64,000 nucleotides of DNA. It comes from Heterodontus francisci. Its lineage: Eukaryota. Shown piece after piece: positions 6,184 to 42,605 of this stretch. The notes under the pieces were generated by a model that saw nothing but the letters and a program-made list of their open reading frames with translations, was not told where the DNA came from and ran no database searches. The stretch spans positions 53,473,401-53,537,400 of the forward strand of contig NC_090381.1 of the NCBI RefSeq assembly GCF_036365525.1. Reading direction: 5' to 3'. The position numbers were made by a program, and so were the translations under genes. Position 1 is the stretch's first letter; every line of letters begins with the position of its first letter.

Positions 6184-6266
6184 AGACTAGAGAGAGAATA
6201 CAATTGTCCCTGTGTGATGGGAAAACCTAAAGTTGCCTTCAGAGAAACGATCTCTACATATGTTCC
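6184..6266 (+). CDS. GFM1: Mitochondrial elongation factor G1, internal exon (equivalent to human exon 13)
   Basis: ttag|AGA...GTT CC|gtgagt, 83 nt; RLEREYNCPCVMGKPKVAFRETISTYVP matches the EF-G GKPKVAFRET motif; phase joins the 42819 exon. Confidence 0.95.
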
Positions 6267-11700: not shown

Positions 11701-14472
11701 AAATAAAAACAAGAAATGCTGGAAATACTCAGATCTGGCAGCATCTGTGGAGAGAGAAGCAGGGTTAACGTTTCAGGTCAGTGACCCTTCTTCAGAACTT
11801 GCAAATATTAGAAATCTAAAAGGTTATAAGCAAGTAAAGCGGGGGTGAGGCAAGAGATAATAAAGGAGAAGGTGTAAATAGGACAAGGTCACAGAATAGC
11901 TGACCAGAAGGTCGTGGAGCAAAGGCAAACAATATGTTAATGGTGTATTGAAAGACAAAGCATTAGTACAGATGGGGTGTTAACAGACTGAAAATTGAAC
12001 AGCCGCAAGTACAAACATGAAAAAAAAAAGTGGGTAAGCAAACTGAACAAACTAAGATGAAATAAAACAAAATAAACGCAAAAAAAAATTTTTTTTAAGG
12101 AAAAAGAGAAATATAACTGAAAATAAAAGTAAAATGGAGCCCGTCATGCTCTGAAATTATTGAACTCAATGTTCAGACCGGCAGGCTGTAATATGCCTAA
12201 TCGGTAAATCAGATGCTGTTCCTCGAGCTTGCGTCGATGTTCACTGGAACACTGCAGCAATCCCAGGACAGAGATGTGAGCATGAGAGCAGGGGGGAGTG
12301 TTGAAATGGCAAGCAACCGGAAACTCGGGGTCCTGCTTGCGGACTGAGCGGAGGTGTTCCGCAAAGCGGTCACCTAATCTGCGTTTGGTCTCCCCAATGT
12401 AGAGGCGACCACATTGTGAGCAGCGAATACAGTACACTACATTGAAAGAAGTACTAGTAAATCGTTGCTTCAACTGAAAGGAGTGTTAGGGGCCAGGGAT
12501 AGTGAGGAGAGAGGAGGTAAATGGGCAGGTATTACACCTCCTGCGATTGCAGGGGAAGGTGCTGTGGGAAGGGGACGAGGTGGTGGGGGTAATGGAGGAG
12601 TGGACCAGGGTGTCATGGAGGGAACGATCCCTTCGGAATGTTGACGAGAAGGGAGGGGAAGATGCGTTTGGTGGTGGCATCACGCCGGCGGTGGCAGAAA
12701 TGGCAGAGGATGATCCTTTGGATATGGAGAATGATGGGGTGGAAAGTGAGGACAAGGGGAACCCTGTCGAGGTTCTGGGAGGGAGGGGAAGGGGTGAGGG
12801 TAGAGGTGCGGGAAATGGGCCGGACACGGTTGAGGGCCCTGTCAACCACAGTGGGGGGGAATCCTCGTTTGAGGAAAAAGAAAGACATATCAGAAGCGCT
12901 GTCATGGAAGGTAGCATCATCAGAGCAGATGCGTCGGAGACGGAGAAACTGGGAGAATGGAATGAAGTCCTTACAGGAGGCAGGGTGTGAAGAAGTGTAG
13001 TCGAGGTAGCTGTGGGAGTCAGTGGAGTTATAATGGATATTAGTGGACAGCCTATCACCAGAGATGGAGATAGAGAAGTCGAGGAAGGGAAGGGAAGTAT
13101 CGGAGATGGACCATGTAAAGGTGAGAGAAGGGTGGAACTTAGAAGCAAAGTTGATAAAGTTTTCCAGTTCGGGGCGGGAACAGGAAATGGCACCGATACA
13201 GTCATCAATGTACCAGAAAAAGACTTGGGGGAGGGGGCCTGAGTAGGACTGGAACAAGGAATGTTCAACATATGCCACAAAAAGACAGGCATAACTGGGA
13301 CCCTTGCGGATACCCATTGCAACACCTTTTACTTGAAGGAAGTGAGTGGAGTTGAAGGAGAAGTTGTTCAATGCGAGAACAAGTTCAGCCAGGTGGAGGA
13401 GGACGGTGGTGGATGGGGACTGGTTGAGCCTCAGCTCAAGGAAGAAGCGGAGAGCCCTCAGACCGTCCTGGTGGGGGATGGAGGTGTAGAGAGATTGGAC
13501 GTCCATAGTGAAGAGGAGGCGGTTGGGGCCAGGAAACTGGAAATTGTCAAAATGACGTAGGACGTCAGATGAGTCACGGATGTAGGTGGGAAGAGACTGG
13601 ACCAGAGGAGAAAAGATAGAGTCAAGACAGGAAGAAATAAGTTCAGTGAGGCAGGAGCAGGCTGACACAATGGGTCTGCCGGGACAGTCCTGTTTGTGGA
13701 TTTTGGGAAGGAGGTAGAAGCGGGCTGTCCGGGGTTGTGGGACTATGAGGTTGGAAGCTGTAGAGGGAAGTTCTCCCGAGGAGATGAGGTCAGTGACAGT
13801 CCTTTGGACAGTAGCTTGATGTTCGGTGGTGGGGTCATGGTCCAGAGGGAGGTAGGAAGAAGTGTCTGAGAGTTTGCGCTGAGCCTCTGCAAGGTAGAGG
13901 TCGGTACGCCAAACAGCAATAGCACCACTCTCGTCTGCAGGTTTGATGACCATGTCGGGGTTAGACCAGAGAGAACGGAGTGCCTCAAGTTCAGAGGGGG
14001 ACAGGTTCGAGTGAGTGAGGGGGCAGAGAAATTGAGACGACCAATGTCGCTCCGACAGTTTTCAGTGAAAAGATCAAGAACGGGTAAGAGGCCTGGGGGA
14101 GTGGTCCAGGTCGAGGGAGAATGCTGGAGGCGGATGAATGGGTCTACTGATCGGGGGAAGGACTCCTGGTCAAAGAAGTGAGCCCGGAGGCGACGGAAGA
14201 AGAGCTCAACGTCATGCCGTGCGCGAAATTCATTGAGGTGGGGGCGTAAGCAGATAAAACTGAGACCTTTGCTGAGTGCAGAACGTTCAGCGTCAGAGAG
14301 GGGGAGGTCAGAGGGTATGGTGAATACACGGCAAGGGGTCAGATCAGAAGGGGTGGGGTCAGAGGGAAGTGAAGGGGAAGAAGGATCTGGAGGGGCATTA
14401 GTCCCCATCAGCTGCTGGAGCTTGCGTTCCTTAACACCTGAAAGGAAGAAAAAGAGTTTTTTGTAAATGCAA
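11701..14472 (-). mobile_element. Second Penelope-like element of the same family, 5'-truncated
   Basis: ORF 12613-13953 is an RT (YIDD); ORF 12144-12473 is a GIY-YIG domain (VYCIRC..C..LYIGETKRRL..RF.EH); TSD aagtatcccatatg at 11687-11700 and 14473-14486. Confidence 0.9.
11763..11799 (-). ncRNA. Minimal hammerhead ribozyme motif in the Penelope terminal repeat (variant copies at ~7660-7696 and ~10927-10964)
   Basis: Minus strand reads agtt-CTGAAGA-agggtcactgacct-GAAAC-GTT-aacc: core CUGANGA and GAAA, a stem II hairpin, a palindromic loopless stem III (AACGUU) and stem I gtt/aac. Confidence 0.6.
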
Positions 14473-16859: not shown

Positions 16860-19800
16860 AAACATTCATTCATGGGAAGTGGGCGACGCTGGCCAGGCCA
16901 GCATTTATTGCCCATCCCTAATTGCCCTTGAGAAGGTGGTGGTGAGCTGCCTTCTTGAACTGCTGCAGTCCATTTAGGGCAGGTGTACCCACAGTGCTGT
17001 TAGGAAGGGAGTTCCAGGATGTTGACCCAGCGACAGTGAATGAACGGCGATATAGTTCCAAGTCAGGATGGTGTGTGACTTGGAGGGGAACTTGCAGGTG
17101 GTGGTGTTCACAAGCATTTGCTGCCCTTGTCCTTCTAGTTGGTAGAAGTCGCGGGTTTGGAAGGTGCTGTCTAAGGAGCCTTGGTGCATTGCTGTAGTGC
17201 ATCTTGTAGATGGTACACACTGCTGGCACTGTGCGTCGGTGGTGGAGGGAGTGAATGTAGATGTGGTGCCAATCAAGCGGGCTACTTTGTCCTGGATGGT
17301 GTCGAGCTTCTTGAGCTGCACCCATCCAGGCAAGTGGAGAGTATTCCATCACACTCCTGACTTGTGCCTTGTAGATGGTGGACAGGCTTTGGGGAGTCAG
17401 GAGGTGAGTTACTCGCCTCAAGATTCCTAGCCTCTGACCTGCTCTTGTAGCCATGGTATTTATATGGCTACTCCAGTTTAGTTTCTGGTCAATGGTAGCC
17501 CCGAGCATGTAGATAGTGGGGGATTCAGCGATGGTAATGCTGTTGAATGTCAAAGGGAGATGGTTAGATTTCCTCTTGTTGGAGATGGTCATTGCCCGGC
17601 ACTTGTGTGGCGCGAATGTTACTTGCCACTTATCTGCCCAAGCCTGGATATTGTCCAGGTCTTGCTGCATTTCTACACGGACTGCTTCAGTATCTGAGGA
17701 GTCACCAATGGTGCTGAACATTGTGCAATCATCAGCGGACATCCCCACTTCTGACCTTGTGATTGAAGGAAGGTGATCGATGAAGCAGCTGAAGATGGTT
17801 GGGCCCAGGACACTACCCTGAGGAACTCTTGCAGTGATGTGCTGGAACTCAGATGATTGACGTCCAACAACCACAACCATCTTCCTTTGCGCTAGGTATG
17901 ACTCCAGCCAGCGGAGGGTTTTCCCCCTGATTCCCATTGACCTCAGTTCTGCCAGGGCTCCTTGATGCCATACTCGGTCAAATGCTGCTTTGATGTCAAG
18001 GACAGTCACTATCACCTCACCTCATGAGTTCAGCTCTTTTGTTCATGTTTGAACCAAGGCTGTAATGAGGTCAGGAGCTGAGTGGCCCTGGCGGAACCCA
18101 AACTGAGTGTCACTGAGCAGGTTATTGCTAAGCAAGTGCCGCTTGATGGCACTGTTGATGACACCTTCTATCACTTTACTGATGATTGAGAGTAGACTAA
18201 TGGGGCGGTCGTTGGCCGGGTTGGACTTGTCCTGCTTTTTGTGTGCAGCACATACCTGGGCAATTTTCCACATTGCAGGGTAGATGCCAGTGTTGTAGCT
18301 GTACTGGAACAGCTTGGCTAGGGGCGCGGCAAGTTCTGGAATACAGGTCTTCAGTGCTATTGCCGGAATATTGTCAGGGCCCATAGCTTTTGCAGTATCC
18401 AGTGTCTTCAGTCGTTTCTTGATATCACGCGGAGTGAATTGAATTGGCTGAAGTCTGGCATCTGTGATGCTGGGGACTTCAGGAGGAGGCCGAGATGGAT
18501 CATCAACTGGGCACTTCTGGCTGAAGATTGTTGCAAATGCTTCAGCTTTATCTTTCGCACTGATGTGCTGGGCTCCCCCATCATTGAGGATGGGGATATT
18601 TGTGGAGCCAGCTCCTCCAGTTAGTTGTTTAATTGTCCACCACCATTCACAGCTGGATGTGGCAGGACTGCAGAGCTTAGATGTGATCCGTTGATTATGG
18701 GATCGCTTAGCTCTGTCTATCGCATGCTGCTTACGCAGTTTGGCATGCAAGTAGTCCTGGGTTGTAGCTTCACCATTTTGAGGTATGCCTGGTGCTGCTC
18801 CTGGCATGCCCTCCTGCACTCTTCATTGAACCAGGGTTGCTCTCCTGGCTTGATGGTAATGGTAGAGTGGGGGATATGCCAGGCCATGAGGTTACAGATT
18901 GTGGTTGAGTACAATTCTGCTGCTGCTGATGGCCCACAGCACCTCATGGATGCCCAGTTTTGCATTGCTAGATCTGTTGGAAATCTATCCCATTTAGCAC
19001 GGTGATAGTGCCACACAACACGATGGACGGTATCCTCAATGTGAAGGCGGGACTTCGTCTCCACAAGGACTGTGCGGTGGTCACTCCCACCAATGCTGTC
19101 ATGGACAGAAGCATCTGCGGCAGGCAGATTGGTGAGGACGAGGTCAAGTATGTTTTTCCCTCGTGTTGGCAGCCCCAGTCTAGCAGCTGTGTCCTTTAGG
19201 ACTCGGCCAGCTTGGTCAGTAGTGGTGCTACTGAGCCAATCTTGGTGATGGACATTGAAGTCCCCCACCCATAGAACATTTTGTGCCCTTGTCATCCTCA
19301 ATGCTTCCTCCAAGTGGTGTTAAACATGGAGGAGTACTGAGTCATCAGCTGAGGGAGGGCGGTAGGTGGTAATCAGTAGGAGGTTACTTTGCCCTTGTTT
19401 GACCTGATGCCATGAGACTTCATGGGGTCCGGAGTCGATGTTGAGGACTCCCAGGGCAACTCCCTCCCTACTGTCTACCACTGTGCCACCACCTCTTGTG
19501 GGTCTGTTCTGCCGGTGGGACAGGACATATCTGGGGATGGTGATGGCAGTGTCTGGGACATTGTCTGTAAGCTCTGATTCCGTGAGTATGAGTGTGTCAG
19601 GCTGTTGCTTGACTAGTCTGTGGGACAGCTCTCCCAACTTTGGCACAAGCCCCCAGCTGTTGGTCAGGAAGATTTTGCCGGGTCGACTGGGCTAGGTTTG
19701 CCCTTGTCGTTTCTGGTGCCGAGGTCGATGCCGGGTGGTCTGTCCAGTTTCATTCCTGTTTATTGACTTCGTAGCGGTTAGGTTCAACTGAGTGGCTTGC

Positions 19801-21018: not shown

Positions 21019-24000
21019 TCAGTTCATGGGAAAACGTTCCATAGCTGACCCTTCAAACCTTTGTGATCCTGCCCCTTCAAGTCTTTCTGATCCTGCCCCT
21101 TCGAGTCTTTGTGATCCTGCCCCTTCGAGTCTTTGTGATCCTGCCCCTTCGAGTCTTTGTGATCCTGCCCCTTCGAGTCTTTGTGATCCTGACCCTTCGA
21201 GTCTTTCTGATCCTGACCCTTCGAGTCTTTCTGATCCTGCCCCTTCGAGTCTTTCTGATCCTGCCCCTTCGAGTCTTTCTGATCCTGCCCCTTCGAGTCT
21301 TTCTGATCCTGCCCCTTCGAGTCTTTCTCGCCCTGCCCCTCCGAGTCTTTCTCGCCCTGCCCCTCCGAGTCTTTCTCGCCCTGCCCCTCCGAGTCTTTCT
21401 CGCCCTGCCCCTCCGAGTCTTTCTCGCCCTGCCCCTCCGAGTCTTTCTCGCCCTGCCCCTCCGAGTCTTTCTCGCCCTGCCCCTCCGAGTCTTTCTCGCC
21501 CTGCCCCTCCGAGTCTTTCTCGCCCTGCCCCTCCGAGTCTTTCTCGCCCTGCCCCTCCGAGTCTTTCTCGCCCTGCCCCTCCGAGTCTTTCTCGCCCTGC
21601 CCCTCCGAGTCTTTCTCGCCCTGCCCCTCCGAGTCTTTCTCGCCCTGCCCCTCCGAGTCTTTCTCGCCCTGCCCCTCCGAGTCTTTCTCGCCCTGCCCCT
21701 CCGAGTCTTTCTCGCCCTGCCCCTCCGAGTCTTTCTCGCCCTGCCCCTCCGAGTCTTTCTCGCCCTGCCCCTCCGAGTCTTTCTCGCCCTGCCCCTCCGA
21801 GTCTTTCTCGCCCTGCCCCTCCGAGTCTTTCTCGCCCTGCCCCTCCGAGTCTTTCTCGCCCTGCCCCTCCGAGTCTTTCTCGCCCTGCCCCTCCGAGTCT
21901 TTCTCGCCCTGCCCCTCCGAGTCTTTCTCGCCCTGCCCCTCCGAGTCTTTCTCGCCCTGCCCCTCCGAGTCTTTCTCGCCCTGCCCCTCCGAGTCTTTCT
22001 CGCCCTGCCCCTCCGAGTCTTTCTCGCCCTGCCCCTCCGAGTCTTTCTCGCCCTGCCCCTCCGAGTCTTTCTCGCCCTGCCCCTCCGAGTCTTTCTCGCC
22101 CTGCCCCTCCGAGTCTTTCTCGCCCTGCCCCTCCGAGTCTTTCTCGCCCTGCCCCTCCGAGTCTTTCTCGCCCTGCCCCTCCGAGTCTTTCTCGCCCTGC
22201 CCCTCCGAGTCTTTCTCGCCCTGCCCCTCCGAGTCTTTCTCGCCCTGCCCCTCCGAGTCTTTCTCGCCCTGCCCCTCCGAGTCTTTCTCGCCCTGCCCCT
22301 CCGAGTCTTTCTCGCCCTGCCCCTCCGAGTCTTTCTCGCCCTGCCCCTCCGAGTCTTTCTCGCCCTGCCCCTCCGAGTCTTTCTCGCCCTGCCCCTCCGA
22401 GTCTTTCTCGCCCTGCCCCTCCGAGTCTTTCTCGCCCTGCCCCTCCGAGTCTTTCTCGCCCTGCCCCTCCGAGTCTTTCTCGCCCTGCCCCTCCGAGTCT
22501 TTCTCGCCCTGCCCCTCCGAGTCTTTCTCGCCCTGCCCCTCCGAGTCTTTCTCGCCCTGCCCCTCCGAGTCTTTCTCGCCCTGCCCCTCCGAGTCTTTCT
22601 CGCCCTGCCCCTCCGAGTCTTTCTCGCCCTGCCCCTCCGAGTCTTTCTCGCCCTGCCCCTCCGAGTCTTTCTCGCCCTGCCCCTCCGAGTCTTTCTCGCC
22701 CTGCCCCTCCGAGTCTTTCTCGCCCTGCCCCTCCGAGTCTTTCTCGCCCTGCCCCTCCGAGTCTTTCTCGCCCTGCCCCTCCGAGTCTTTCTCGCCCTGC
22801 CCCTCCGAGTCTTTCTCGCCCTGCCCCTCCGAGTCTTTCTCGCCCTGCCCCTCCGAGTCTTTCTCGCCCTGCCCCTCCGAGTCTTTCTCGCCCTGCCCCT
22901 CCGAGTCTTTCTCGCCCTGCCCCTCCGAGTCTTTCTCGCCCTGCCCCTCCGAGTCTTTCTCGCCCTGCCCCTCCGAGTCTTTCTCGCCCTGCCCCTCCGA
23001 GTCTTTCTCGCCCTGCCCCTCCGAGTCTTTCTCGCCCTGCCCCTCCGAGTCTTTCTCGCCCTGCCCCTCCGAGTCTTTCTCGCCCTGCCCCTCCGAGTCT
23101 TTCTCGCCCTGCCCCTCCGAGTCTTTCTCGCCCTGCCCCTCCGAGTCTTTCTCGCCCTGCCCCTCCGAGTCTTTCTCGCCCTGCCCCTCCGAGTCTTTCT
23201 CGCCCTGCCCCTCCGAGTCTTTCTCGCCCTGCCCCTCCGAGTCTTTCTCGCCCTGCCCCTCCGAGTCTTTCTCGCCCTGCCCCTCCGAGTCTTTCTCGCC
23301 CTGCCCCTCCGAGTCTTTCTCGCCCTGCCCCTCCGAGTCTTTCTCGCCCTGCCCCTCCGAGTCTTTCTCGCCCTGCCCCTCCGAGTCTTTCTCGCCCTGC
23401 CCCTCCGAGTCTTTCTCGCCCTGCCCCTCCGAGTCTTTCTCGCCCTGCCCCTCCGAGTCTTTCTCGCCCTGCCCCTCCGAGTCTTTCTCGCCCTGCCCCT
23501 CCGAGTCTTTCTCGCCCTGCCCCTCCGAGTCTTTCTCGCCCTGCCCCTCCGAGTCTTTCTCGCCCTGCCCCTCCGAGTCTTTCTCGCCCTGCCCCTCCGA
23601 GTCTTTCTCGCCCTGCCCCTCCGAGTCTTTCTCGCCCTGCCCCTCCGAGTCTTTCTCGCCCTGCCCCTCCGAGTCTTTCTCGCCCTGCCCCTCCGAGTCT
23701 TTCTCGCCCTGCCCCTCCGAGTCTTTCTCGCCCTGCCCCTCCGAGTCTTTCTCGCCCTGCCCCTCCGAGTCTTTCTCGCCCTGCCCCTCCGAGTCTTTCT
23801 CGCCCTGCCCCTCCGAGTCTTTCTCGCCCTGCCCCTCCGAGTCTTTCTCGCCCTGCCCCTCCGAGTCTTTCTCGCCCTGCCCCTCCGAGTCTTTCTCGCC
23901 CTGCCCCTCCGAGTCTTTCTCGCCCTGCCCCTCCGAGTCTTTCTCGCCCTGCCCCTCCGAGTCTTTCTCGCCCTGCCCCTCCGAGTCTTTCTCGCCCTGC

Positions 24001-27000
24001 CCCTCCGAGTCTTTCTCGCCCTGCCCCTCCGAGTCTTTCTCGCCCTGCCCCTCCGAGTCTTTCTCGCCCTGCCCCTCCGAGTCTTTCTCGCCCTGCCCCT
24101 CCGAGTCTTTCTCGCCCTGCCCCTCCGAGTCTTTCTCGCCCTGCCCCTCCGAGTCTTTCTCGCCCTGCCCCTCCGAGTCTTTCTCGCCCTGCCCCTCCGA
24201 GTCTTTCTCGCCCTGCCCCTCCGAGTCTTTCTCGCCCTGCCCCTCCGAGTCTTTCTCGCCCTGCCCCTCCGAGTCTTTCTCGCCCTGCCCCTCCGAGTCT
24301 TTCTCGCCCTGCCCCTCCGAGTCTTTCTCGCCCTGCCCCTCCGAGTCTTTCTCGCCCTGCCCCTCCGAGTCTTTCTCGCCCTGCCCCTCCGAGTCTTTCT
24401 CGCCCTGCCCCTCCGAGTCTTTCTCGCCCTGCCCCTCCGAGTCTTTCTCGCCCTGCCCCTCCGAGTCTTTCTCGCCCTGCCCCTCCGAGTCTTTCTCGCC
24501 CTGCCCCTCCGAGTCTTTCTCGCCCTGCCCCTCCGAGTCTTTCTCGCCCTGCCCCTCCGAGTCTTTCTCGCCCTGCCCCTCCGAGTCTTTCTCGCCCTGC
24601 CCCTCCGAGTCTTTCTCGCCCTGCCCCTCCGAGTCTTTCTCGCCCTGCCCCTCCGAGTCTTTCTCGCCCTGCCCCTCCGAGTCTTTCTCGCCCTGCCCCT
24701 CCGAGTCTTTCTCGCCCTGCCCCTCCGAGTCTTTCTCGCCCTGCCCCTCCGAGTCTTTCTCGCCCTGCCCCTCCGAGTCTTTCTCGCCCTGCCCCTCCGA
24801 GTCTTTCTCGCCCTGCCCCTCCGAGTCTTTCTCGCCCTGCCCCTCCGAGTCTTTCTCGCCCTGCCCCTCCGAGTCTTTCTCGCCCTGCCCCTCCGAGTCT
24901 TTCTCGCCCTGCCCCTCCGAGTCTTTCTCGCCCTGCCCCTCCGAGTCTTTCTCGCCCTGCCCCTCCGAGTCTTTCTCGCCCTGCCCCTCCGAGTCTTTCT
25001 CGCCCTGCCCCTCCGAGTCTTTCTCGCCCTGCCCCTCCGAGTCTTTCTCGCCCTGCCCCTCCGAGTCTTTCTCGCCCTGCCCCTCCGAGTCTTTCTCGCC
25101 CTGCCCCTCCGAGTCTTTCTCGCCCTGCCCCTCCGAGTCTTTCTCGCCCTGCCCCTCCGAGTCTTTCTCGCCCTGCCCCTCCGAGTCTTTCTCGCCCTGC
25201 CCCTCCGAGTCTTTCTCGCCCTGCCCCTCCGAGTCTTTCTCGCCCTGCCCCTCCGAGTCTTTCTCGCCCTGCCCCTCCGAGTCTTTCTCGCCCTGCCCCT
25301 CCGAGTCTTTCTCGCCCTGCCCCTCCGAGTCTTTCTCGCCCTGCCCCTCCGAGTCTTTCTCGCCCTGCCCCTCCGAGTCTTTCTCGCCCTGCCCCTCCGA
25401 GTCTTTCTCGCCCTGCCCCTCCGAGTCTTTCTCGCCCTGCCCCTCCGAGTCTTTCTCGCCCTGCCCCTCCGAGTCTTTCTCGCCCTGCCCCTCCGAGTCT
25501 TTCTCGCCCTGCCCCTCCGAGTCTTTCTCGCCCTGCCCCTCCGAGTCTTTCTCGCCCTGCCCCTCCGAGTCTTTCTCGCCCTGCCCCTCCGAGTCTTTCT
25601 CGCCCTGCCCCTCCGAGTCTTTCTCGCCCTGCCCCTCCGAGTCTTTCTCGCCCTGCCCCTCCGAGTCTTTCTCGCCCTGCCCCTCCGAGTCTTTCTCGCC
25701 CTGCCCCTCCGAGTCTTTCTCGCCCTGCCCCTCCGAGTCTTTCTCGCCCTGCCCCTCCGAGTCTTTCTCGCCCTGCCCCTCCGAGTCTTTCTCGCCCTGC
25801 CCCTCCGAGTCTTTCTCGCCCTGCCCCTCCGAGTCTTTCTCGCCCTGCCCCTCCGAGTCTTTCTCGCCCTGCCCCTCCGAGTCTTTCTCGCCCTGCCCCT
25901 CCGAGTCTTTCTCGCCCTGCCCCTCCGAGTCTTTCTCGCCCTGCCCCTCCGAGTCTTTCTCGCCCTGCCCCTCCGAGTCTTTCTCGCCCTGCCCCTCCGA
26001 GTCTTTCTCGCCCTGCCCCTCCGAGTCTTTCTCGCCCTGCCCCTCCGAGTCTTTCTCGCCCTGCCCCTCCGAGTCTTTCTCGCCCTGCCCCTCCGAGTCT
26101 TTCTCGCCCTGCCCCTCCGAGTCTTTCTCGCCCTGCCCCTCCGAGTCTTTCTCGCCCTGCCCCTCCGAGTCTTTCTCGCCCTGCCCCTCCGAGTCTTTCT
26201 CGCCCTGCCCCTCCGAGTCTTTCTCGCCCTGCCCCTCCGAGTCTTTCTCGCCCTGCCCCTCCGAGTCTTTCTCGCCCTGCCCCTCCGAGTCTTTCTCGCC
26301 CTGCCCCTCCGAGTCTTTCTCGCCCTGCCCCTCCGAGTCTTTCTCGCCCTGCCCCTCCGAGTCTTTCTCGCCCTGCCCCTCCGAGTCTTTCTCGCCCTGC
26401 CCCTCCGAGTCTTTCTCGCCCTGCCCCTCCGAGTCTTTCTCGCCCTGCCCCTCCGAGTCTTTCTCGCCCTGCCCCTCCGAGTCTTTCTCGCCCTGCCCCT
26501 CCGAGTCTTTCTCGCCCTGCCCCTCCGAGTCTTTCTCGCCCTGCCCCTCCGAGTCTTTCTCGCCCTGCCCCTCCGAGTCTTTCTCGCCCTGCCCCTCCGA
26601 GTCTTTCTCGCCCTGCCCCTCCGAGTCTTTCTCGCCCTGCCCCTCCGAGTCTTTCTCGCCCTGCCCCTCCGAGTCTTTCTCGCCCTGCCCCTCCGAGTCT
26701 TTCTCGCCCTGCCCCTCCGAGTCTTTCTCGCCCTGCCCCTCCGAGTCTTTCTCGCCCTGCCCCTCCGAGTCTTTCTCGCCCTGCCCCTCCGAGTCTTTCT
26801 CGCCCTGCCCCTCCGAGTCTTTCTCGCCCTGCCCCTCCGAGTCTTTCTCGCCCTGCCCCTCCGAGTCTTTCTCGCCCTGCCCCTCCGAGTCTTTCTCGCC
26901 CTGCCCCTCCGAGTCTTTCTCGCCCTGCCCCTCCGAGTCTTTCTCGCCCTGCCCCTCCGAGTCTTTCTCGCCCTGCCCCTCCGAGTCTTTCTCGCCCTGC

Positions 27001-28836
27001 CCCTCCGAGTCTTTCTCGCCCTGCCCCTCCGAGTCTTTCTCGCCCTGCCCCTCCGAGTCTTTCTCGCCCTGCCCCTCCGAGTCTTTCTCGCCCTGCCCCT
27101 CCGAGTCTTTCTCGCCCTGCCCCTCCGAGTCTTTCTCGCCCTGCCCCTCCGAGTCTTTCTCGCCCTGCCCCTCCGAGTCTTTCTCGCCCTGCCCCTCCGA
27201 GTCTTTCTCGCCCTGCCCCTCCGAGTCTTTCTCGCCCTGCCCCTCCGAGTCTTTCTCGCCCTGCCCCTCCGAGTCTTTCTCGCCCTGCCCCTCCGAGTCT
27301 TTCTCGCCCTGCCCCTCCGAGTCTTTCTCGCCCTGCCCCTCCGAGTCTTTCTCGCCCTGCCCCTCCGAGTCTTTCTCGCCCTGCCCCTCCGAGTCTTTCT
27401 CGCCCTGCCCCTCCGAGTCTTTCTCGCCCTGCCCCTCCGAGTCTTTCTCGCCCTGCCCCTCCGAGTCTTTCTCGCCCTGCCCCTCCGAGTCTTTCTCGCC
27501 CTGCCCCTCCGAGTCTTTCTCGCCCTGCCCCTCCGAGTCTTTCTCGCCCTGCCCCTCCGAGTCTTTCTCGCCCTGCCCCTCCGAGTCTTTCTCGCCCTGC
27601 CCCTCCGAGTCTTTCTCGCCCTGCCCCTCCGAGTCTTTCTCGCCCTGCCCCTCCGAGTCTTTCTCGCCCTGCCCCTCCGAGTCTTTCTCGCCCTGCCCCT
27701 CCGAGTCTTTCTCGCCCTGCCCCTCCGAGTCTTTCTCGCCCTGCCCCTCCGAGTCTTTCTCGCCCTGCCCCTCCGAGTCTTTCTCGCCCTGCCCCTCCGA
27801 GTCTTTCTCGCCCTGCCCCTCCGAGTCTTTCTCGCCCTGCCCCTCCGAGTCTTTCTCGCCCTGCCCCTCCGAGTCTTTCTCGCCCTGCCCCTCCGAGTCT
27901 TTCTCGCCCTGCCCCTCCGAGTCTTTCTCGCCCTGCCCCTCCGAGTCTTTCTCGCCCTGCCCCTCCGAGTCTTTCTCGCCCTGCCCCTCCGAGTCTTTCT
28001 CGCCCTGCCCCTCCGAGTCTTTCTCGCCCTGCCCCTCCGAGTCTTTCTCGCCCTGCCCCTCCGAGTCTTTCTCGCCCTGCCCCTCCGAGTCTTTCTCGCC
28101 CTGCCCCTCCGAGTCTTTCTCGCCCTGCCCCTCCGAGTCTTTCTCGCCCTGCCCCTCCGAGTCTTTCTCGCCCTGCCCCTCCGAGTCTTTCTCGCCCTGC
28201 CCCTCCGAGTCTTTCTCGCCCTGCCCCTCCGAGTCTTTCTCGCCCTGCCCCTCCGAGTCTTTCTCGCCCTGCCCCTCCGAGTCTTTCTCGCCCTGCCCCT
28301 CCGAGTCTTTCTCGCCCTGCCCCTCCGAGTCTTTCTCGCCCTGCCCCTCCGAGTCTTTCTCGCCCTGCCCCTCCGAGTCTTTCTCGCCCTGCCCCTCCGA
28401 GTCTTTCTCGCCCTGCCCCTCCGAGTCTTTCTCGCCCTGCCCCTCCGAGTCTTTCTCGCCCTGCCCCTCCGAGTCTTTCTCGCCCTGCCCCTCCGAGTCT
28501 TTCTCGCCCTGCCCCTCCGAGTCTTTCTCGCCCTGCCCCTCCGAGTCTTTCTCGCCCTGCCCCTCCGAGTCTTTCTCGCCCTGCCCCTCCGAGTCTTTCC
28601 CGCCCTGCCCCTCCGAGTCTTTCCCGCCCTGCCCCTCCGAGTCTTTCCCGCCCTGCCCCTCCGAGTCTTTCCCGCCCTGCCGCCCCTTCGAGTCTTTCCC
28701 GCCCTGCCGCCCCTTCGAGTCTTCCAAATTCTGACACTTTAGAAATACTTTCAGATGGAGAAGGTAAGCAAAAGTATTTCACAGTCAGAGATTGTTTGGG
28801 GTGCCACATCACCCACATAGAGCAAGTGATTGTTTC
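21019..28836 (-). CDS. Latexin/RARRES1-family gene, terminal exon (exon 6 equivalent) extended by ~320 octapeptide repeats
   Basis: Acceptor ttctctgccctgaacag|GAA, phase 0; [23 protein letters not shown] resembles LXN EIIPWQMQVLWHPQ..KVK and RARRES1 EIIPC....WYPGKPLKVKYHC; frame stays open through (GRERLGGA)n to ...[11 protein letters not shown] stop (2605 aa). Confidence 0.75.
21046..28722. repeat. 24-bp tandem repeat, ~320 units; unit ccctgcccctccgagtctttctcg
   Basis: 302 identical copies at 21331-28578, ~12 divergent units at the left end, and four single-substitution units plus two 27-bp units at the right end. Confidence 0.98.
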
Positions 28837-28955
28837 CTGTTCAGGGCAGAGAAATTAGCATTACTTGTATGTAATTAATGTGCTGGCAATGATCATTGTG
28901 AAAGGAATTTGAGCAGTCTCTGTAGATAATTAGTTAATTTATTTGATTAATTTAC

Positions 28956-29018
28956 CTGGGTTGGCAACTCATGAAGATGAACAATGTAGTTAAATTGAAG
29001 AAATTTGTCTGTCCTTAT
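28956..29018 (-). CDS. Latexin/RARRES1-family gene, exon 5 equivalent
   Basis: ctttttccag|ATA...CAG|gtaaat, 63 nt, phase 0-0; IRTDKFLQFNYIVHLHELPTQ resembles LXN [21 protein letters not shown] and RARRES1 ...FDYTVLLHELSTQ. Confidence 0.88.
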
Positions 29019-29110
29019 CTGGAAAAAGAGTTGTTTAGTTATTAAAACATTTGATGAAAATGCCACAATAAAGATATATGCAGTGGCTAGAAGATATTTT
29101 AATTTCTTAC

Positions 29111-29247
29111 CAATTGGTTAACTTTCTGTATTCGAGCCATGTTATACTTCAAGACTTCAGTGGATTTTTTCCAAATGATGGAGCTGGCACGATATTTTGC
29201 CAGGAGCCAGATGGGCATCATTCTGGGGTCTACAAATCCAAAATTAT
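29111..29247 (-). CDS. Latexin/RARRES1-family gene, exon 4 equivalent
   Basis: tcag|AT AAT...CAA TTG|gtaaga, 137 nt, phase 1-0; DNFGFVDPRMMPIWLLAKYRASSIIWKKSTEVLKYNMARIQKVNQL resembles LXN DNFGNVSPEM...[23 protein letters not shown]. Confidence 0.9.
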
Positions 29248-29387
29248 CTGATATGCAGGGAGAAAAAGAAGGATGTTTTTGATAAAATAAAATTTGGAAT
29301 TCAGGTTAAGTATTCTTGAATATTTTCTCATACTAAAAATCAGCTTGATAACTAATTGAACTGTTAAGTGACGAGGATAACTGAAAC

Positions 29388-29439
29388 CGGATTTTTTTTT
29401 CTTGTGGAAGAGTACATTCGCTGTACAGATGCCAGTAAC
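29388..29439 (-). CDS. Latexin/RARRES1-family gene, truncated exon 3 equivalent (donor uncertain)
   Basis: caccacag|GTT; VTGICTANVLFHKKKKS resembles LXN VNCTAEVLY; a weak donor G|gtttca gives 52 nt in phase 1, compatible with exon 4. Confidence 0.6.
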
Positions 29440-29713
29440 CTGTGGTGAGAAATAATTATGGTTATCTTGACTTTAGTTCTTTGAAGATTGGAGCACTTGT
29501 ATTAGTTGCAGCGTGTTTATTCACTTGAGGCAAGGGTAACTAGCCATTTTAGTTCAGTTACTTGTGTTTAAATGGACATTGAAAGAAATGGTAATTCTGT
29601 CACTTAATCCTGTTGCCAGAAACAAATTATCAAAAGAAGAAGATATTTTCAAAAAGTTTATTTGTGAGTTTTTTGGACAGTGAATGTTACATGTGAGGTA
29701 TAATTCTACTTAC

Positions 29714-29782
29714 ATTTGAAGAGCTTTCTTCATTTTTGACTTCAAATTCTAGGTGGTACTTGTGTCCTATATTCGAAAGCAC
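29714..29782 (-). CDS. Latexin/RARRES1-family gene, exon 2 equivalent
   Basis: ttttctctccag|GTG...AAT|gtaagt, 69 nt, phase 0-0; VLSNIGHKYHLEFEVKNEESSSN resembles LXN DIPGRGHKYHLKFAVEE. Confidence 0.88.
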
Positions 29783-29845
29783 CTGGAGAGAAAAATATTT
29801 TGCCAGTGTACGCTTATGTTGTGAAGTCAATCTTGATACTAACAT

Positions 29846-30452
29846 AGCAGTGGAAGCCTTACCCATGCGCTTGTTGATTTCTGCATCTAGAGACAGGTTA
29901 CTGGTGATAATTGAGCCTAGGTAGGGGAACTCTTGAACCACTTCCAGAGCGTGGTCGCCAATATTGATGGCTGGAGCATTTCTGACGTCCTGCCCCATGA
30001 TGTTCGTTTTCTTGAGGCTGATGGTTAGGCCAAATTCATTGCAGGCAGCCGCAAACTTGTCGATGAGACTCTGCAGGCATTCTTCAGTGTGAGATGTTAA
30101 AGCAGCATCGTCAGCAAAGAGGAGTTCTCTGATGAGGACTTTCCGTACTTTGGACTTCGCTCTTAGACGGGCAAGGTTGAACAACCTGCCCCCTGATCTT
30201 GTGTGGAGCAAAATTCCTTCTTCAGAGGATTTGAACGCATGTGAAAGCAGCAGGGAGAAGAAAATCCCAAAAAGTGTGGGTGCGAGAACACAGCCCTGTT
30301 TCACACCACTCAGGATAGGAAAGGGCTCTGATGAGGAGCCACCATGTTGAATTGTGCCTTTCATATTGTCATGGAATGAGGTGATGATACTTAGTAGCTT
30401 TGGTGGACATCCGATCTTTTCTAGTAGTCTGAAGAGACCACGTCTGCTGACG
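29846..30452 (-). mobile_element. RTE-clade (BovB-like) LINE RT fragment
   Basis: GVKQGCVLAPTLF, LFADDAAL, FGLTISLKKT, YLGS motifs. Confidence 0.85.
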
Positions 30453-31423
30453 TTATGTATTCAAGTAATAAATGCTCATGTTCCATGGACTTTGTTATGG
30501 TCTCAAATGTCTGCTTCCAACACACTTGCAGTTCAGCTTTTAATCCGGACCTAACTTCACTGCATTTGGTTAATATGCTCTGGAATGAAATGCTGACTTC
30601 ATTCAGTTAATCTTGCTTTTGACAAAAGAAAACAGTGATTTGCTCTAACTTTTGAACTTGAATCAAAGTTCATGTTCAGAGTCTGAAAGCTATGAAGTGC
30701 TTTTCCGCGTTAATTTATTAGTAATGAGAAGAAGGAATATTATTTTGTGACCATGTTAATTTCCACCACCTTCAGCTTACTAATTACACAGGATAATAGT
30801 AATATAATTATATAATAATATAAGCAAATTGTTGCAATTTTATCATTTTTCCGAGACCTTTTGCCATGTATGTTCAGTGTAGTGAGTAAAGAGGACCATT
30901 TTACAATACTTATCAAAAATCTTGATGTTTAGCTAATATTTCAAGGAACTGATGTAACTATCCAATATTCCTGTTTTGTGCTAGTTTAGAAATGCAAAAC
31001 TAATTTCAAATAGAAATCATTAGACTTGCTAATATGTCGAAAACTACAGAATTAGTCAAATTGGGAAAAATAGATCGCTTACAATGATTACAAGGCTGTG
31101 ATCTGATAGGTTTAGTGGACATTTTTATACCAAGAGTCCAGTGCTCTACCAATGTATCTGAAAGCTGAAAGTTATTGGAAGGTTTTATTTTGTGTGGGTC
31201 AGTTTATCTGTTGACTGATCCTTGGGTGGATGTTAGCAGGCATTGTGCTCCAAGTGAGTGAGTGATGGGCATCCACACTAAACAATTAAGTTTTATTTAA
31301 TTACTCTATATTGATCAAAAAATTTGCAGTTGATTGTTATGCAATTTGTTGTAACATGATTCTTTAAATTGCTCACCAAATAATTAGAAATATGTGGAGA
31401 TGAGCTATTGTATCAGGAACTAT

Positions 31424-32556
31424 GGGCTGGATTTTACAGACCACCTGACGTTGAGTTTTGTGGCGGGCTGTGCGGGAAAATGCCTCCGGGAGAGGGCCGG
31501 CACGCACCCCAATGCCAGGAGGGCCTGGCCCGATATTGCCGGTGGCGACGAGGCCTTGTGGTGGCCCCTCCACTGCTTGGTGACCGGACCCCCATTTGCA
31601 TATTCAAATAAATGTAAATGAATGCATTAATTATACTTACATCCCCTTCTAAGTTACCACTCTGATCTTCGGCCCAGTGGCCGGCCCTCCCGCGCCTTTG
31701 GCTCCCCGTCTCGGGAAACAAGGTGGAACACTTGTGGGGAATGGGGAGGAGGTAAGTTTCTCAGTGCGGGGGTGGGGGAATGGGGTCATTATTAGTTTAG
31801 GGGATGGTGGGAAGGGTTTGAGGTTAACCTTTATGCACCTTGGTGGGGGGGGGGGGGGTGGGGGGAAGGTCAGGTGACCAGATGTGTTTTGAGGGGAGAG
31901 GGCAAGTAATTAATTTAATTGTTATGGGGGGGTGGGGGGTGGTGGGAGAGAGGCAGAAGAAATGCCTTTATTTTTATTTCCTTGTGCTTTAAATATTTAC
32001 ATTTTACAGTAGGGTTCAAAGCCCTTTAAAAATGGCGCAGTGCCTGTACACAGGCAGCTGACGCCATTGACGAGGGCGGACAGCCGCTCTCTCCACATGA
32101 TTGGGATGGGGGTGGCTCGCCCTGGCTATTTAATTGAGCCACCATGCTTAGGGTTGTGGCGGCTCTACGACGTGCGGCCCACCATTGTTTTCGGTGGTGG
32201 GCGGCACAGTGGTGCAGTGGTTAGCACTGCAGCCTCACAGCTCCAGGGACCCGGGTTCGATTCCGGGTACTGCCTGTGTGGAGTTTGCAAGTTCTCCCTG
32301 TGTCTCTGTGGGTTTTCTCCGGGTGCTCCGGTTTCCTCCCACAAGCCAAAAGACTTGCAGGTTGACAGGTAAATTGGCCGTTATAAATTGTCACTAGTAT
32401 AGGTAGGTGGTAGGGCAATATAGGGACAGGTGGGGATGTTTGGTAGGAATATAGGATTAGTATAAATGGGTGGTTGATGTTCGGCACAGACTCGGTGGGC
32501 CGAAGGGCCTGTTTCAGTGCTGTATCTCTAATCTAATCTAATCTAAAATTCAGCTC
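31424..32556. mobile_element. Non-autonomous TIR element (MITE-like) with a SINE inserted near its right end
   Basis: Starts gggctggattttac and ends taaaattcagctc (imperfect inverted repeat); GC-rich non-coding interior. Confidence 0.55.
32199..32546 (+). mobile_element. tRNA-derived V-SINE (HE1-like)
   Basis: A box tggtgcagtgg, B box ggttcgattcc, V-domain gtgtggagtttgcaagttctccc...ggtttcctcccaca, CR1-type tail gggccgaagggcctgtttc and (ctaat)n. Confidence 0.85.
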
Positions 32557-36817: not shown

Positions 36818-39800
36818 TGTTCTGAAGGTGCTCCATTTTTAAAATGTTTTGAGGACTGTGTTAACGATTATGGACATTGGTTCATTTGGAAAACTGAAAA
36901 GATTCCATGGATGTGTTTTTTTTACAACGGTCATTGGGAAGACACTTGAGCTTTGTGTTTAAAAACAACCTTACTGGATGTCACATGCCTTAAGCTAAAT
37001 AAACAACAGGAATCTTGGTGGCCAGAGAAGTGACCTGTCAAGATTTATGATGGTCAGGAGGTTTAGACATGCTGTTGGGGTGTGGACTGTTTTGAAGGCA
37101 GATGGGTTTGTCACCTTCTGAAAAGAAACACCCAACTCATCTTTTTCCCACCTCTTTGAGAGACCCTGCAAAAAAAAAATCCAATGTGTGATAGCTAAAA
37201 CCCTCCCGATACCACATTTCTCCTGAGAAGCTTCTGGAAAGCCTGCCAGATAAGTTCTCGAAGCTGTCTTAAAAAAGGCGCTCCAGAAAAGATCCCAGTG
37301 GTGCGTCGATGTGCAATCAGACATCAGACTGTACGCCATTTGGGACGCAACATATCATCTTCTCCTTCCAAAGGAATTAACACGTATTTGGCCAGAGTCG
37401 GTTTTTGCCTTTTTTTTGTGGAAAACCAATGCAGAGAAATCTTTTTTTAATCTAACCATGTGTGTGTTGAGTATCTAGAAGGGAATATCTGTTTATATTC
37501 ATCTTTCAAACTGTGTTAATGCTTTGCATCTTTATTGGATGAGTCTTGTTTTATAATAAGTTGTGAATTTTTGTTTATTAAAGAAACTTGGTTGGTGTAT
37601 TTTATTCTGGGTTAGAGTATATGATTGACTGCATCGGTAACTGGGTGAACATTTAAATATATGTTGTAGCTTGTGGAGAAGTGGAACTTGCGAAAGACAG
37701 TGCGCTCCTCCCGCCTCGGTGGCTCTGGGTGGATAACCTGATGCCGACAACATGCAATTGCAAGTGTGGTAATAATAATTGAAAAGAGGAAAAGTGAAAA
37801 AACAGCTTTCTTGTGCTTTAAAGTTTACACTACCGGAATGGATTTGTTACTTGCTACGACCTTTTTGAGGAGGGAGGATTTATCCCTGAGTGATATGCAA
37901 ATCTTAACCAAGGCGAGGCTAAATGAATAGGCAGAAAAGCTGGTGTTAGAGTTAAAACCAGGAGCTAAGAAAGCAGACATAATTGAGGTAATAGCACAGC
38001 ATTGGAAATTGAAAGAAGGACAGGGCAATCCAGATGGTAGTTCAGTTGAATTAACTAGGATTCAGTTGCAGATGAAGCAGCTTGAACAGGAAAAAGAGAT
38101 GAAAAAACTTGAGTTTGAACAGGAAAGTGAATTAATAATGAAGAAACTTGAAAGAGAGGACAGGGCAAAAGAGACAGCATTTCAAAGAGAAAGGGAATTT
38201 GAATTTAAAAAGCTAGAACTAAGTCAAAGGGGTGGCCTTGTCCCCAGGGTAAATTCTGGTGAGGAAAGATCTGACTCAGCCCAGGATCCAGTGGAGAGCT
38301 GTTTCAATTTGTGCAAGACCTCCTGAAGTTCGAAAAGATAGCCAGACAGATGAAGTGGCCAAAGGAAAGCTGGATACTGTTTATGCAAAGGACGTTGATG
38401 GGGAGAGCTCATGAAGTTTATGCTATGCTTTCTGAGGAGGCTTCTGCAGCTCATGAGATGGCAACAAAGTCTGTTCTCACTGCTTATGAGTTAGTCCCTG
38501 AAGCATACAGGCAAAATTTCAGAACCTCCGGAAACAGTCTGGGCAAACATATTTAGAATTTGAGAGGGTAAAGCAAATTAATTTTGATTGGATGCAGGCA
38601 CTAAAGTAGAGGCCACGTATGAAACCCTAAGGGAAATAATTTTGGAAGAATTTAAAAATTCATTCCTTCCGTTAGTAAGAACCCATGTAGAGAAACAGAA
38701 AGTTTCAACAGACAGGCAGCGGTGATCGCTGATGAATACAAGCTTGTTTACAAGCCTAAACCCTTTCACCCCCCCACCCCCCCCCCCCGCCCACGAACCC
38801 GAGAAGGCTAGAAGGTGGGAGGGTGAAAGGAAGGCAAGCAGGTGGGGACAAGAAAGGACAGCTGGGAACGCTCCGGGATCTCCTCAGGCCAGAAAGCAAG
38901 ATGCTGAGGGTGGAAATGAGGTCCGAAAGCCTAAGTGTTTCCATTGCCACAAGGTGAGGCACCTTTGTGCAGAATGCTGGCAGTTGCGAGGTACCCCCTG
39001 GGACGTGTTGGGGTACGTAAGGCCAATGCAGAGAAAGGGGCCATGACTGCAGCTGTAAGGCCACGAACAAAAACCGCTCTGAGTGCAGGGGACGTGAACA
39101 AGATACCTGAGAGTTATAGGGAATTCTTATCAAAAGGAAGAGTAACTCCTTATCCCTCGAGAGGCAGATAAACCTTTAGTTATACTGAGGGATACAGGAG
39201 CCACCCAAACCCTTTTGCTGGGGAAAGGCATAACTTTTCCACCAGAGAGTGCACTGAATGCCAAGGTTTTAGTGAACGTTATCGGCGGGGAGTATATACC
39301 CGTACCTTTGTATCGGGTGCACCTGGAATGTGATCTCATGTCTGGAATGGTAACTGTAGGAGTTGTCCATAGTTTGCCTGTAGATGGAGTTGACCTACTT
39401 CTGGGGAATGATTTGGCCAGAGCAAAGGTAATAGCTTCTCCAGTAGTCATGGAAAGTCCAAGTGAAGTCCAAGAGACAGAACAGTTGCAGGAAAAGGTTC
39501 CAGGAATTTTCGCTTCATGTGTCGTGATCCGAGCAATGGCGAAACAAGCTCCATGTCGGAGGTCAAATTGGCACCACAGACAGCCAAATATCTGAAACTT
39601 TCTTTGGGGATTTGAATAATCCGAAGGCAATGTTCAATAAGTCTTCTCTGATCAAGGCTCAGCAAGCCAATCCAGATTTAAGTAAAGTGGCACAATCAGA
39701 TCCAACTTAAGCTGAGACAAAGGGAGTTCCAGAAGGCTACTACATTAAAAATGGGATTCTGATGAGAAAGTGGAGACCTGCTCACAGACCTACAGACTAA

Positions 39801-42605
39801 GACTGGACTGTTGTTCACCAGATAGTGGTACCGTCCAGGTATCACCGGGAAATATTAAAAATAGCCCATGAAATTCCCATGGTGTGACGTGTGGGGATCC
39901 GGAAGACCCAATCACGTATAGGTTGACATTTTTCGTGGCCAGGTCTTTACAAGGATGTGGTGCAGTTTTGTAAAACATGTCAGATTGTGGGAAACCCGCA
40001 ACCTGCCATAAAACTGGCACCTCTAATTCCCATTTTTTGGGGAACCATTGAGTAGGGTGTTGGTAGACTGTGTGGGACCTTTATCGAAAACAAAAGAGGG
40101 ACGTCAATATCTACTTACTATTATGGATATGGCTACTCAGTTCCCAGAGGCCATTCCCTTGAGAACAACTGCTAGGGTAGTGGTAGAAAAGTGAACCCAA
40201 TTTTTCACTAGATGTGGATTACCGATTGAGATCCAGTCAGATCAAGATTCCAATTTCATGTCTAATACTTTCCAGGAAATTATGAATAATCTGGGAATGA
40301 CACAGTTAAAGTCTTCAGCATACCACCCACAGACACACGGGGCTTTAGAACAGTACCATCAGATCCTCAAGACGATGATCAGGGCATACAGTCATGATAA
40401 TCCCCATGATTGGGATAAAGGGCTGGAATTTCTTTTGTTTGCCACTGGGGATTCAACTGATGAGTCTACCGGTTTTGGTCCTTTTGAATTAGTTTATGGA
40501 CATGAGGTAAGAGGTACTCTGAAACTAATCAAAAAAATGTTTTTAGAACAGAGGGGCAAATCTTCCGTGTTAGACCAAGTATCCGTGCTCCGGGAGGGGC
40601 TCACGAGAGCCTGCAAGGTGGCTCAGGAACACCTGAAAGCTTCCCAAACAACAGTGAAGAAATGGGCAGACGAGCATGCCAAGACCCGAACATTTCAATC
40701 AGGGGCTGAAGTGTTGGTATTACTACCTTTACAGGGTGAACTGCTGAAAGCACGGTTCAGTGGACCATATCAAGTGGTCGAAAGAATTGGTGAAGTAAAT
40801 TATTTGATTGACACGCCAGATCACCGGAAGAAGAATTGGCTGTGTCATATCAATATATTGAAACAATATTACTGCCGGGAGGGGGATAAGCAAGCAGAGG
40901 TATGTCAGGTATGCCTCGACAATTCTCAAATTGAATCTTCAGTCAAAACAGCTGGAGTTCCCCAGTTGTGTTCTGCCTAAACGTGATGGCTCAACTAGAT
41001 TTTGCATTGACTATAGAAAGGTAAATGCAGTAACAAAGGCAGACCCCAACCCATTTCCTTGCTTGGAAGACTATTGACAGAGTTGGCAGTGCCACATTTC
41101 TTACCAAAATAGATCTGTTAAAGAAATATTGGCCTTTATCACACCAAACGGTCTTTTCCAATGCAGAGTGATGCCATTCGGTCTAAAAATAATTCCCCAG
41201 CAAATTTCCAGAGACAAATTAAACAAGTGGTAGCCAGTGTTCCCAACTGTGTGATTTACCTTGATGATGTGTTGGTATGCAGTGACACTTGGAAGAACCA
41301 CTTGGAACAACGAAAAGTTCTGTTCAGAAAATTACAGTTGGCTGATTTGGTGATCGACCTTGCGAAAAGTGAATTTGCAAAAGTACGGGTGACCTACCTC
41401 TGGCATATAGTAGGGCAAAAACAAGTATTGCCAAGAACCGCAAAAGTACAAGCATCGATGGCGTTCCCTACCCCTGAGACTAAACGAACAATCATGAGGT
41501 TTTTTGGGATGTGTGGTTTCGACTGCAAGTTTGTACCAAATTTCAGCACTATAGCTGCTCCACTGAGAGATTTGATGCAAAAAAAGCCAAGGAAGTATGG
41601 TCAGGGGAGTGCCAAGCATCTTTTGAGAGGCTGAAATCCATTTTGATCAATGAACTAGCGTTGGCTGCCCCAAATTTCACTAAGTCCTTCAAGGTAGCAA
41701 ATGATGCTAGTGACCTGGGGGGGTGGTTGGTGCAATCCTTTTACGAGACAACAAAAATATACTTAGCAGTGGAAAAAGAAACCCTGGGCTTATTACCAGC
41801 TCTTAAGCATTTTGAAGTATATGGCCACCATGACGACAGAGGGACACTGGTATATACTGATCATAACCCCCTAGCATTTGTGGAAAAATTCAACAACCAG
41901 AATGCCGCACTATTTCGATGGAGTTTACTGTTGCAGCCCTATCACTTAACGGTTATCCACGTTACGGGGAAAATAATGTAATTGCTGATGCTTTGTCTCG
42001 AATTTAACTTTGCTTTGAGTTATCTGAGTAAAAAGATGGTATAAAGCAGAACTGTATTCGTTGCACGTAAAGAGTGAATGGGAATGAGAGTACATGTGTT
42101 TTAATATTTTTTCCACACAGTAGTGAAATACATTTAAAAATTACATTTAATTCCTCCAAGGATGGAGGTGCTCCGTTCTTAAAACATTTTGAGGACTTGT
42201 GTTAACGATTTTGAACATTGGTTCTTTTGGAAAACTGAAGAGATTCCATGGATGTGTTTTTTTTTTTGCAAGTGTCACTAGGAATACATTTGAGCTTTGT
42301 TTTTAAAAGCAACCTTTACTTGATGTCACATGCATTAAGCTAAATAAACAACAGGAATCTTGGTGGCCAGGGGTGCTACTTACAGAGAAGTGACCTGTCG
42401 AGATTTATGGTGGTCAGGAGGTTTACACTTGCTGTTGGGGTGTGGACTATTCTGAAGTTTGGGTTTGTAGACTTCTGAAAAGAAACACCCAACTCATCTT
42501 TCTCCACCTCTTTGAGAGACCCTGCAAAAAATCCAGTATGTGATAGCTAAAACCCTCCTGGTGCAGCATTTCTTCTGAGAAGCTTCTGGAAAGCCTGCCA
42601 GGAGC
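36818..42605 (+). mobile_element. Degenerate Gmr1-like Ty3/Gypsy LTR retrotransposon (gag-PR-IN-RT-RH)
   Basis: 5' LTR ~36818-37720; partial 3' LTR ~42165-42605; gag with AYELVPEAYRQ and C..C....H....C knuckle; protease LRDTGA (~39185); integrase IQSDQ, SAYHPQT (~39850-40880); RT YLDD (~41258); RNase H DAS, YTDHNPL. Confidence 0.88.

Follow-up and report, generated by a model that had tools for sequence, protein, structure and literature searches.

Human LXN lies antisense within an intron of GFM1, which we take to be intron number 13. According to published accounts, latexin originated in gnathostomes and TIG1 in tetrapods (PMC2784779), no signal peptide is predicted for human latexin (PMC6435711), latexin is reported in rat cartilage (PMC2904732), and ovocalyxin-32 (OCX-32) is an eggshell protein, with RARRES1 being syntenic with GFM1 (PMC8144736).

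This study concerns a stretch of 64,000 nucleotides from Heterodontus francisci (contig NC_090381.1, positions 53,473,401 to 53,537,400), hereafter the window, in which a minus-strand latexin-family gene had been predicted to encode a structural protein of ~2,700 aa. That prediction of a giant protein was not upheld. The gene in the window, referred to as copy A, lacks exon 1 and with it the ATG and the leader, ~40 codons of exon 3 are gone, the Ser-rich and acidic character of the tail has been lost, and the exons diverge as fast as the introns. It is likely, judging from these features, that copy A is a duplicated pseudogene carrying a runaway G-rich minisatellite, confined to a single locus and derived from a formerly coding repeat. 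This copy probably does not give rise to the giant protein at all.

Genomic setting and family placement

Copy A lies antisense to GFM1, between an exon at ~6.2 kb (6184..6262, plus strand, approximate ends, located by motif scan) and the domain-IV exon at 42.8 kb. The flanking exons confirm the nesting in a GFM1 intron that had been proposed, and the position, antisense in the intron preceding the domain-IV exons, is that expected of a strict LXN orthologue. Five intact 3' exons of GFM1 follow on the plus strand, at 42820-42993, 45643-45807, 47196-47339, 48712-48765 and 49092-49223, the last of which includes the stop codon (ends approximate). The GFM1 intron thus carries the 7.6-kb array of the latexin tail. 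RVT_1 retrotransposon fragments are also present in GFM1 introns, at 3515-4810 (plus), 12616-14061 (minus) and 16921-18021 (minus), and decayed pieces of LTR retrotransposons, with RVT_1 and integrase-associated domains, were found at 37800-41900 (plus) and 53741-54502 (minus).

Exon 4 has three matches in the genome of the same species, one in the window and the others ~51 kb and ~100 kb further on. The latexin-family gene belongs to a unit of ~50 kb, also containing the GFM1 3' exons, that is tandemly triplicated within 224 kb of contiguous sequence; most aligned blocks are 92-98% identical. Copy B (contig about 53,551,300-53,559,300) sits ~51 kb upstream of copy A in the same orientation and has a tail of 85 units; copy C (contig about 53,600,500-53,606,900) is a complete gene with a tail of 57 units. 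In both, exons 1-5 are complete, with an exon 1 of 225 nt that provides the ATG and a hydrophobic leader, and an exon 3 of 169 nt. The 5' exons of GFM1 are single-copy, and the triplicated 3' exons are intact in unit A only: an 8-nt deletion common to units B and C shifts the frame in the penultimate exon, and unit C has one further frameshift. The units may therefore have divided the labour, GFM1 having been kept in unit A and complete latexin heads in B and C. The possibility that A, B and C are uncollapsed haplotypes was rejected on the basis of the number of copies, which is three, the ~2% divergence near the gene, and the shared and private lesions in GFM1.

With regard to the family, the shark head aligns with human latexin (PDB 2BO9 chain B; also 1WNH) over residues 2-212 with an E value of 1.1e-43, and mammalian latexin resembles the shark gene in this match of the head and in its antisense position in GFM1. 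The shark protein possesses ~31 additional N-terminal residues relative to human latexin, which include a hydrophobic core, and the N-terminal hydropathy amounts to 2.35-3.03 in the nine orthologue rows. Unlike the chondrichthyan proteins, the rows of the LXN clade have neither the terminal Y-x-C nor the E-G/A-S-G/A end motif. RARRES1/TIG1 and OCX-32 share a hydrophobic N-terminus, a terminal VKY-x-C and an E-G/A-S-G...EGSA motif with the proteins of sharks, chimaera (annotated as 'latexin precursor') and lungfish; they carry one or two copies of the end motif, whereas shark tails carry many. The shark tail looks like a tandem amplification of a C-terminal motif of the RARRES1/OCX-32 type. Phylogenetic analysis of 41 rows, of which 18 were named proteins and 23 unnamed representatives chosen from the longer matches among 105, with tails trimmed, resolved a chondrichthyan group of 10 rows (98/92), an LXN group (100/99) and a RARRES1/OCX-32 group (96/84), under a midpoint root only. 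The chondrichthyan gene would fit a single ancestral gene predating the LXN/RARRES1 split. A genome-wide Pfam search, in which the best 14 candidates were scored, found no other PF06907 locus in the H. francisci genome.

Exons, lesions and constraint in copy A

Five minus-strand exons had been proposed for copy A. Four of them, of 69, 137, 63 and 7,818 nt, have AG/GT ends as described; the remaining one, of 52 nt, turned out to be the remnant of a deletion in what is a 169-nt exon 3 in copies B and C. Exon 2 (29714..29782, minus, 69 nt) encodes a peptide identical to that of copies B and C and contains no in-frame ATG. The exon 3 remnant (29388..29439, minus) retains ~45 nt, followed by a ~124-nt deletion that removed most of the exon, including its donor and ~40 codons. 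Exon 4 (29111..29247, minus, 137 nt) differs from copies B and C at three amino acids and contains an in-frame Met-Met, and exon 5 (28956..29018, minus, 63 nt) has a histidine where nine of nine orthologue rows and copies B and C have leucine. The last exon, exon 6 (21019..28836, minus, 7,818 nt), is indeed open in frame through the array to the stop at 21019. Its 2,605 codons, plus the stop, comprise a WHP..VKYFC head, the repeat tail and a FEGSAM..N end, and both the head and the end are conserved. Exons 2, 4, 5 and 6 are free of stops and frameshifts, their splice sites are intact, and polyA signals are retained near 20.7 kb of the window, all of which counts against the pseudogene reading.

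The assignment to the latexin family was supported by Pfam profiles, since three of the six pieces scanned matched LXN (PF06907): exon 4 with an E value of 1.3e-12 and 48.2 bits, above the cut-off of 24.1, and exon 5 (E 0.0056) and the exon-6 head (E 0.0013) below it. The other three pieces, namely exon 2, the exon-3 piece and the tail end, gave no Pfam match.

Exon 1 of copy A was not found: tblastn and blastn over the 224 kb matched only copies B and C, as did the exon-1 matches (2 of 12) of the genome-wide Pfam search with its 14 best candidates. The profile matches to exons 1 and 3 (PF06907 positions 2-48 and 58-122; 4 of the 12 matches genome-wide) are likewise restricted to copies B and C. 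In copy A, the ~4.7 kb (as measured in copy B) that hold exon 1 are swapped for a LINE piece of ~600 bp, an RVT_1 reverse-transcriptase fragment at 29845..30450 on the minus strand (E 5.5e-15), which takes up the place that exon 1 has in copies B and C, has a 4-nt microhomology (TGTT) at its downstream junction and continues in frame into exon 2. As a result of the two deletions, copy A has no start exon with an ATG and leader, and parts of the fold are missing, so that two complete cystatin-fold domains are no longer present. In the nine-row alignment, 34 of the 94 invariant head columns are lost; exon 1 accounts for 23 of these and the deleted stretch of exon 3 for the other 11. Copy A has the disabling lesions of a duplicated pseudogene, alongside complete paralogues.

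A giant protein with a basic tail would require a substitute start. One could be provided by a LINE-derived first exon, with an ATG at 30364, together with a cryptic donor in exon 3; another by read-through splicing of the head of copy B onto exon 6 of copy A. We regard either route as very improbable. For the first, the sequence upstream of copy A, including the presumed promoter, is still 93-94% identical to that of B and C, and two cryptic exon-3 donors, at 29388 and 29334, preserve the frame, so that on paper a chimera of the LINE frame, exon 2 and either donor is open over 2,906 or 2,924 aa. The donors are nevertheless weak, matching 4 of 9 consensus positions (as at 29388), and if exon 3 is skipped, the frame terminates after 222 aa. 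In the 240 nt scanned, the ATG at 30364 is preceded by four out-of-frame ATGs and an in-frame ORF of two codons, and the product would lack the leader and have a broken first cystatin domain. The open chimeric frame is itself not demanding, as an open frame is to be expected in a young LINE piece and an in-frame join would occur by chance in about 1 in 8 cases, by our own estimate. The second route is favoured by the location of copy B on the same strand, ~51 kb upstream, and, like the first, by the intact exon-6 acceptor and polyA signals of copy A, but the transcript would have to pass five polyA-type signals of copy B. In the improbable event of translation, copy A would yield a latexin-family protein of 2,700-2,900 aa with a basic Gly/Arg polymer of ~2,560 aa, which would have arisen recently from an ancestral acidic, possibly glycosaminoglycan-bearing tail by one charge-reversing expansion.

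A more modest outcome, which is also unlikely, is that copy A is transcribed into a non-coding RNA or into a truncated, non-adaptive product that starts at the Met codons of exon 4 and consists of half a cystatin domain and the tail. The in-frame Met-Met, the intact splice sites of exons 4-6 and a stop located in the last exon are compatible with such a product; the start exon is nonetheless absent, and no sign of constraint was observed. Among the 24 sequencing runs listed, four probable DNA runs, all from one sample, hold 0.70-0.72 of the sequence words of 28760-31500, but they are possibly the source of the assembly itself and hence not independent. The probable RNA runs hold 0.11-0.14 of these words, a small share that is also found in unrelated metagenomes and is thus no evidence of expression.

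The pseudogene reading is consistent with the divergence between copies. In exons, copy A differs from B at 11 of 431 and from C at 13 of 431 positions (2.6-3.0%), and B from C at 6 of 431 (1.4%). The corresponding values for introns and 3' flank are 21/1219 and 25/1221 (1.7-2.0%) and 26/1220 (2.1%). The exons of copy A therefore diverge at or above the intron rate, which would fit relaxed constraint, with counts that are small and differences that are not significant. Eight codons are changed in A alone, five non-synonymously and three synonymously, too few for a test of selection; one of the five non-synonymous changes keeps the orthologue residue and another (Tyr to Ser) also occurs in Heptranchias.

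The tail array and its origin in a coding repeat

The exon-4 protein (searched among proteins of 80-2,000 aa) gave three matches among four candidates, all named shark latexin, with 78-87% identity in exon 4, and a search with an orthologue head (189-602 aa) gave eight matches among 32 candidates. The resulting alignment has nine rows, from eight sharks and one ray, cluster members included. All eight shark orthologues carry the same in-frame octamer tail, of the EGSGSERx type, over 76-228 aa or ~7-27 units, and the ray orthologue has a stub of 41 aa; seven of the nine rows end in SAM-D/E...N, like the gene in the window. The RefSeq 'latexin' models of Cetorhinus (XP_078419878.1), Scyliorhinus (XP_038671072.1 and XP_072330599.1) and Mustelus (XP_078065115.1) resemble copy A in their peptide blocks, octamer tail and ending, and those of Stegostoma, Heptranchias, Chiloscyllium and Pristiophorus have the same peptide blocks and octamer tail with a similar ending. 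Because the in-frame octamers and the C-terminal ending are shared, the array descends from coding sequence, and the repeat frame of copy A is the ancestral coding frame. The original prediction was correct in this respect.

What the orthologues do not share is the length and chemistry of the tail. The shark models are 318-471 aa long and have a leader, a whole head and 7-27 acidic, Ser-rich units, compared with ~320 basic, Ser-free units in copy A. Net charge is +299 in the tail of copy A, where Ser makes up 1% of the residues; the nine orthologue rows range from -3 to -21 in charge and contain 13-30% Ser. Through the expansion, a tail that was acidic and rich in Ser has become basic, and the core unit contains no serine. 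The statement that no latexin-family protein has such a tail holds for length, since the longest of the 105 representatives has 434 aa and no shark orthologue found exceeds 471 aa; tails of this kind, however, are present in sharks. No giant-tailed relative was found among the 105 representatives, the three matches of 80-2,000 aa or the eight matches of 189-602 aa.

The sister copies indicate that tail content is loosely held in H. francisci, given the premature stop in copy B and the 23-nt units in both B and C. In copy B, the stop occurs after 262 codons of the exon and leaves an acidic tail of 239 aa, ordinary in size and devoid of the conserved end; 17 units of 23 nt all lie beyond this stop. 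In copy C, 15 of the 57 units are 23 nt long, and the tail cycles through all three frames before it regains the conserved C-terminal end, which could be due to selection on the end, to chance (1 in 3) or to homopolymer errors.

The array of copy A spans 21068..28722 on the minus strand (one delimitation gives 21068-28708) and consists of ~318 units, with ancestral-like variants at its 3' end and two 27-nt units at its 5' end. The octamer that had been proposed for it is GRERLGGA. The unit length is 24 nt in 316 of 318 cases and 27 nt in two; units of 23 nt, present in B and C, do not occur, which is a further point against the pseudogene reading. A block at 21325..28596 (minus, 7,272 bp) comprises 303 identical units with 0 variants. 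A dispersed satellite was rejected, as the core unit has 302 exact forward and 0 reverse matches in the genome, consistent with a single array, and the first 100 places listed all fall within that of copy A. Plus-strand coding of the array was likewise rejected by inference, since the plus strand is GFM1 intron and the orthologues fix the minus-strand frame. The plus-strand frame FSPCPSES resembles the peptide LPSPSES of the exon-6 head (window 28759-28782, minus), a likeness that is probably coincidental, given the intronic status of the plus strand.

Across the array, each of the six frames is open over 2,475-2,616 codons, because the 24-bp unit is free of stops in every frame, and 78% of 20,000 simulated variants of the ancestral-like unit with four substitutions stay open in the coding frame. 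On its own, the open frame is no more than expected by chance and is weak evidence for a giant protein. What goes beyond chance is that the frame of the tail is that of the orthologues and that the array is made solely of 24- and 27-nt units.

Divergence among the 303 core units is bounded at ~0.04%, compared with ~2% in the flanks. The expansion is either far younger than the duplication, or homogenised, or smoothed by assembly. The last option leads to an alternative that we consider unlikely, in which copy A is a pseudogene but the length or perfect homogeneity of its array is largely an artefact of over-expansion or consensus polishing. Compared with the mixed arrays of B and C, a run of 303 units without a variant is extreme, which speaks for such an artefact. 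However, ordered and graded variant units occur at both ends of the array, as in natural minisatellites, and homogeneous runs are natural in this gene: the array of copy B includes a run of 26 copies of one unit, and the tail of Heptranchias is a single octamer repeated. A second near-perfect array is located in GFM1, ~34.6-32.2 kb upstream of the window start, with 88 copies of a 27-bp unit and 98% matches, so the latexin tail is not the only homogeneous array in this assembly.

The preferred reading, a pseudogene with a genuine expansion, raises the question of cause. In our own variant of G4Hunter-type scoring, in which G-quadruplex formation is only scored, the expanded unit reaches 1.17 and the ancestral-like units 0.42-0.92, with 0.42-0.79 for the units at the 3' end of copy A; a three-copy variant unit with a higher score (1.46) stayed unexpanded. 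A close counterpart is CEB1, a human G-rich minisatellite for which G-quadruplex-dependent instability is reported in yeast (PMC2673046). The two are alike in having a G-rich unit, one locus and variant units at the array ends, and they differ in that the array of copy A derives from a coding exon and its G-quadruplex is predicted by score only. By analogy with CEB1, G-richness is a candidate, unproven cause of expansion at the DNA level.

A possible course of events can be outlined, in which the order of the duplications is inferred. Unit A would have been duplicated to produce the ancestor of B and C, which would then have been duplicated again. With spare copies present, a LINE-templated deletion would have removed exon 1 from copy A, and a second deletion would have taken most of exon 3. 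One G-richer variant of the ancestral 24-mer would then have been amplified ~300-fold by slippage or recombination. The perfect homogeneity of the array suggests that exon loss preceded this expansion. The 24-nt length of the unit and its lack of stops, rather than selection for a giant protein, would have kept the frame open.

Shark tails as candidate proteoglycans

The E/D-G/A-S-G motif is described as a chondroitin attachment motif, with a caution from the authors that motifs by themselves are ambiguous (PMC8418075). A motif scan, subject to the same ambiguity, found 5-18 such motifs in eight of eight shark tails and 0 in ray and skate. The copies of H. francisci contain two (A), none (B) and three (C), and all three have largely lost the EGSG motif. 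The in-frame tail recovered in eight sharks is acidic, Ser-rich and 7-27 units long rather than giant. Chondrichthyans seem to possess one latexin/RARRES1-type gene with a hydrophobic leader and with cysteines and an end motif of the RARRES1/OCX-32 type, in which sharks would have amplified the EGSG motif to tails of 7-27 units. From its sequence, the shark 'latexin' looks like a secreted protein with repeated EGSG motifs and is a candidate proteoglycan. No description of the shark EGSG tail or of the triplication was found in the mostly non-subscription literature searched; the sequences are already in RefSeq, and the gene may be listed in supplementary tables from transcriptome or proteome studies of sharks.

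Copy A, as read here, is a clean case of a coding repeat that escaped constraint after gene duplication. It also shows that a giant protein should not be deduced from a long frame that is open across a 3n repeat lacking stops. Across the family, the possible proteoglycan tail is a longer-lasting lead than copy A itself: if the serines of the tail carry chondroitin or heparan sulfate, sharks would possess a carboxypeptidase-inhibitor fold on a proteoglycan tail.
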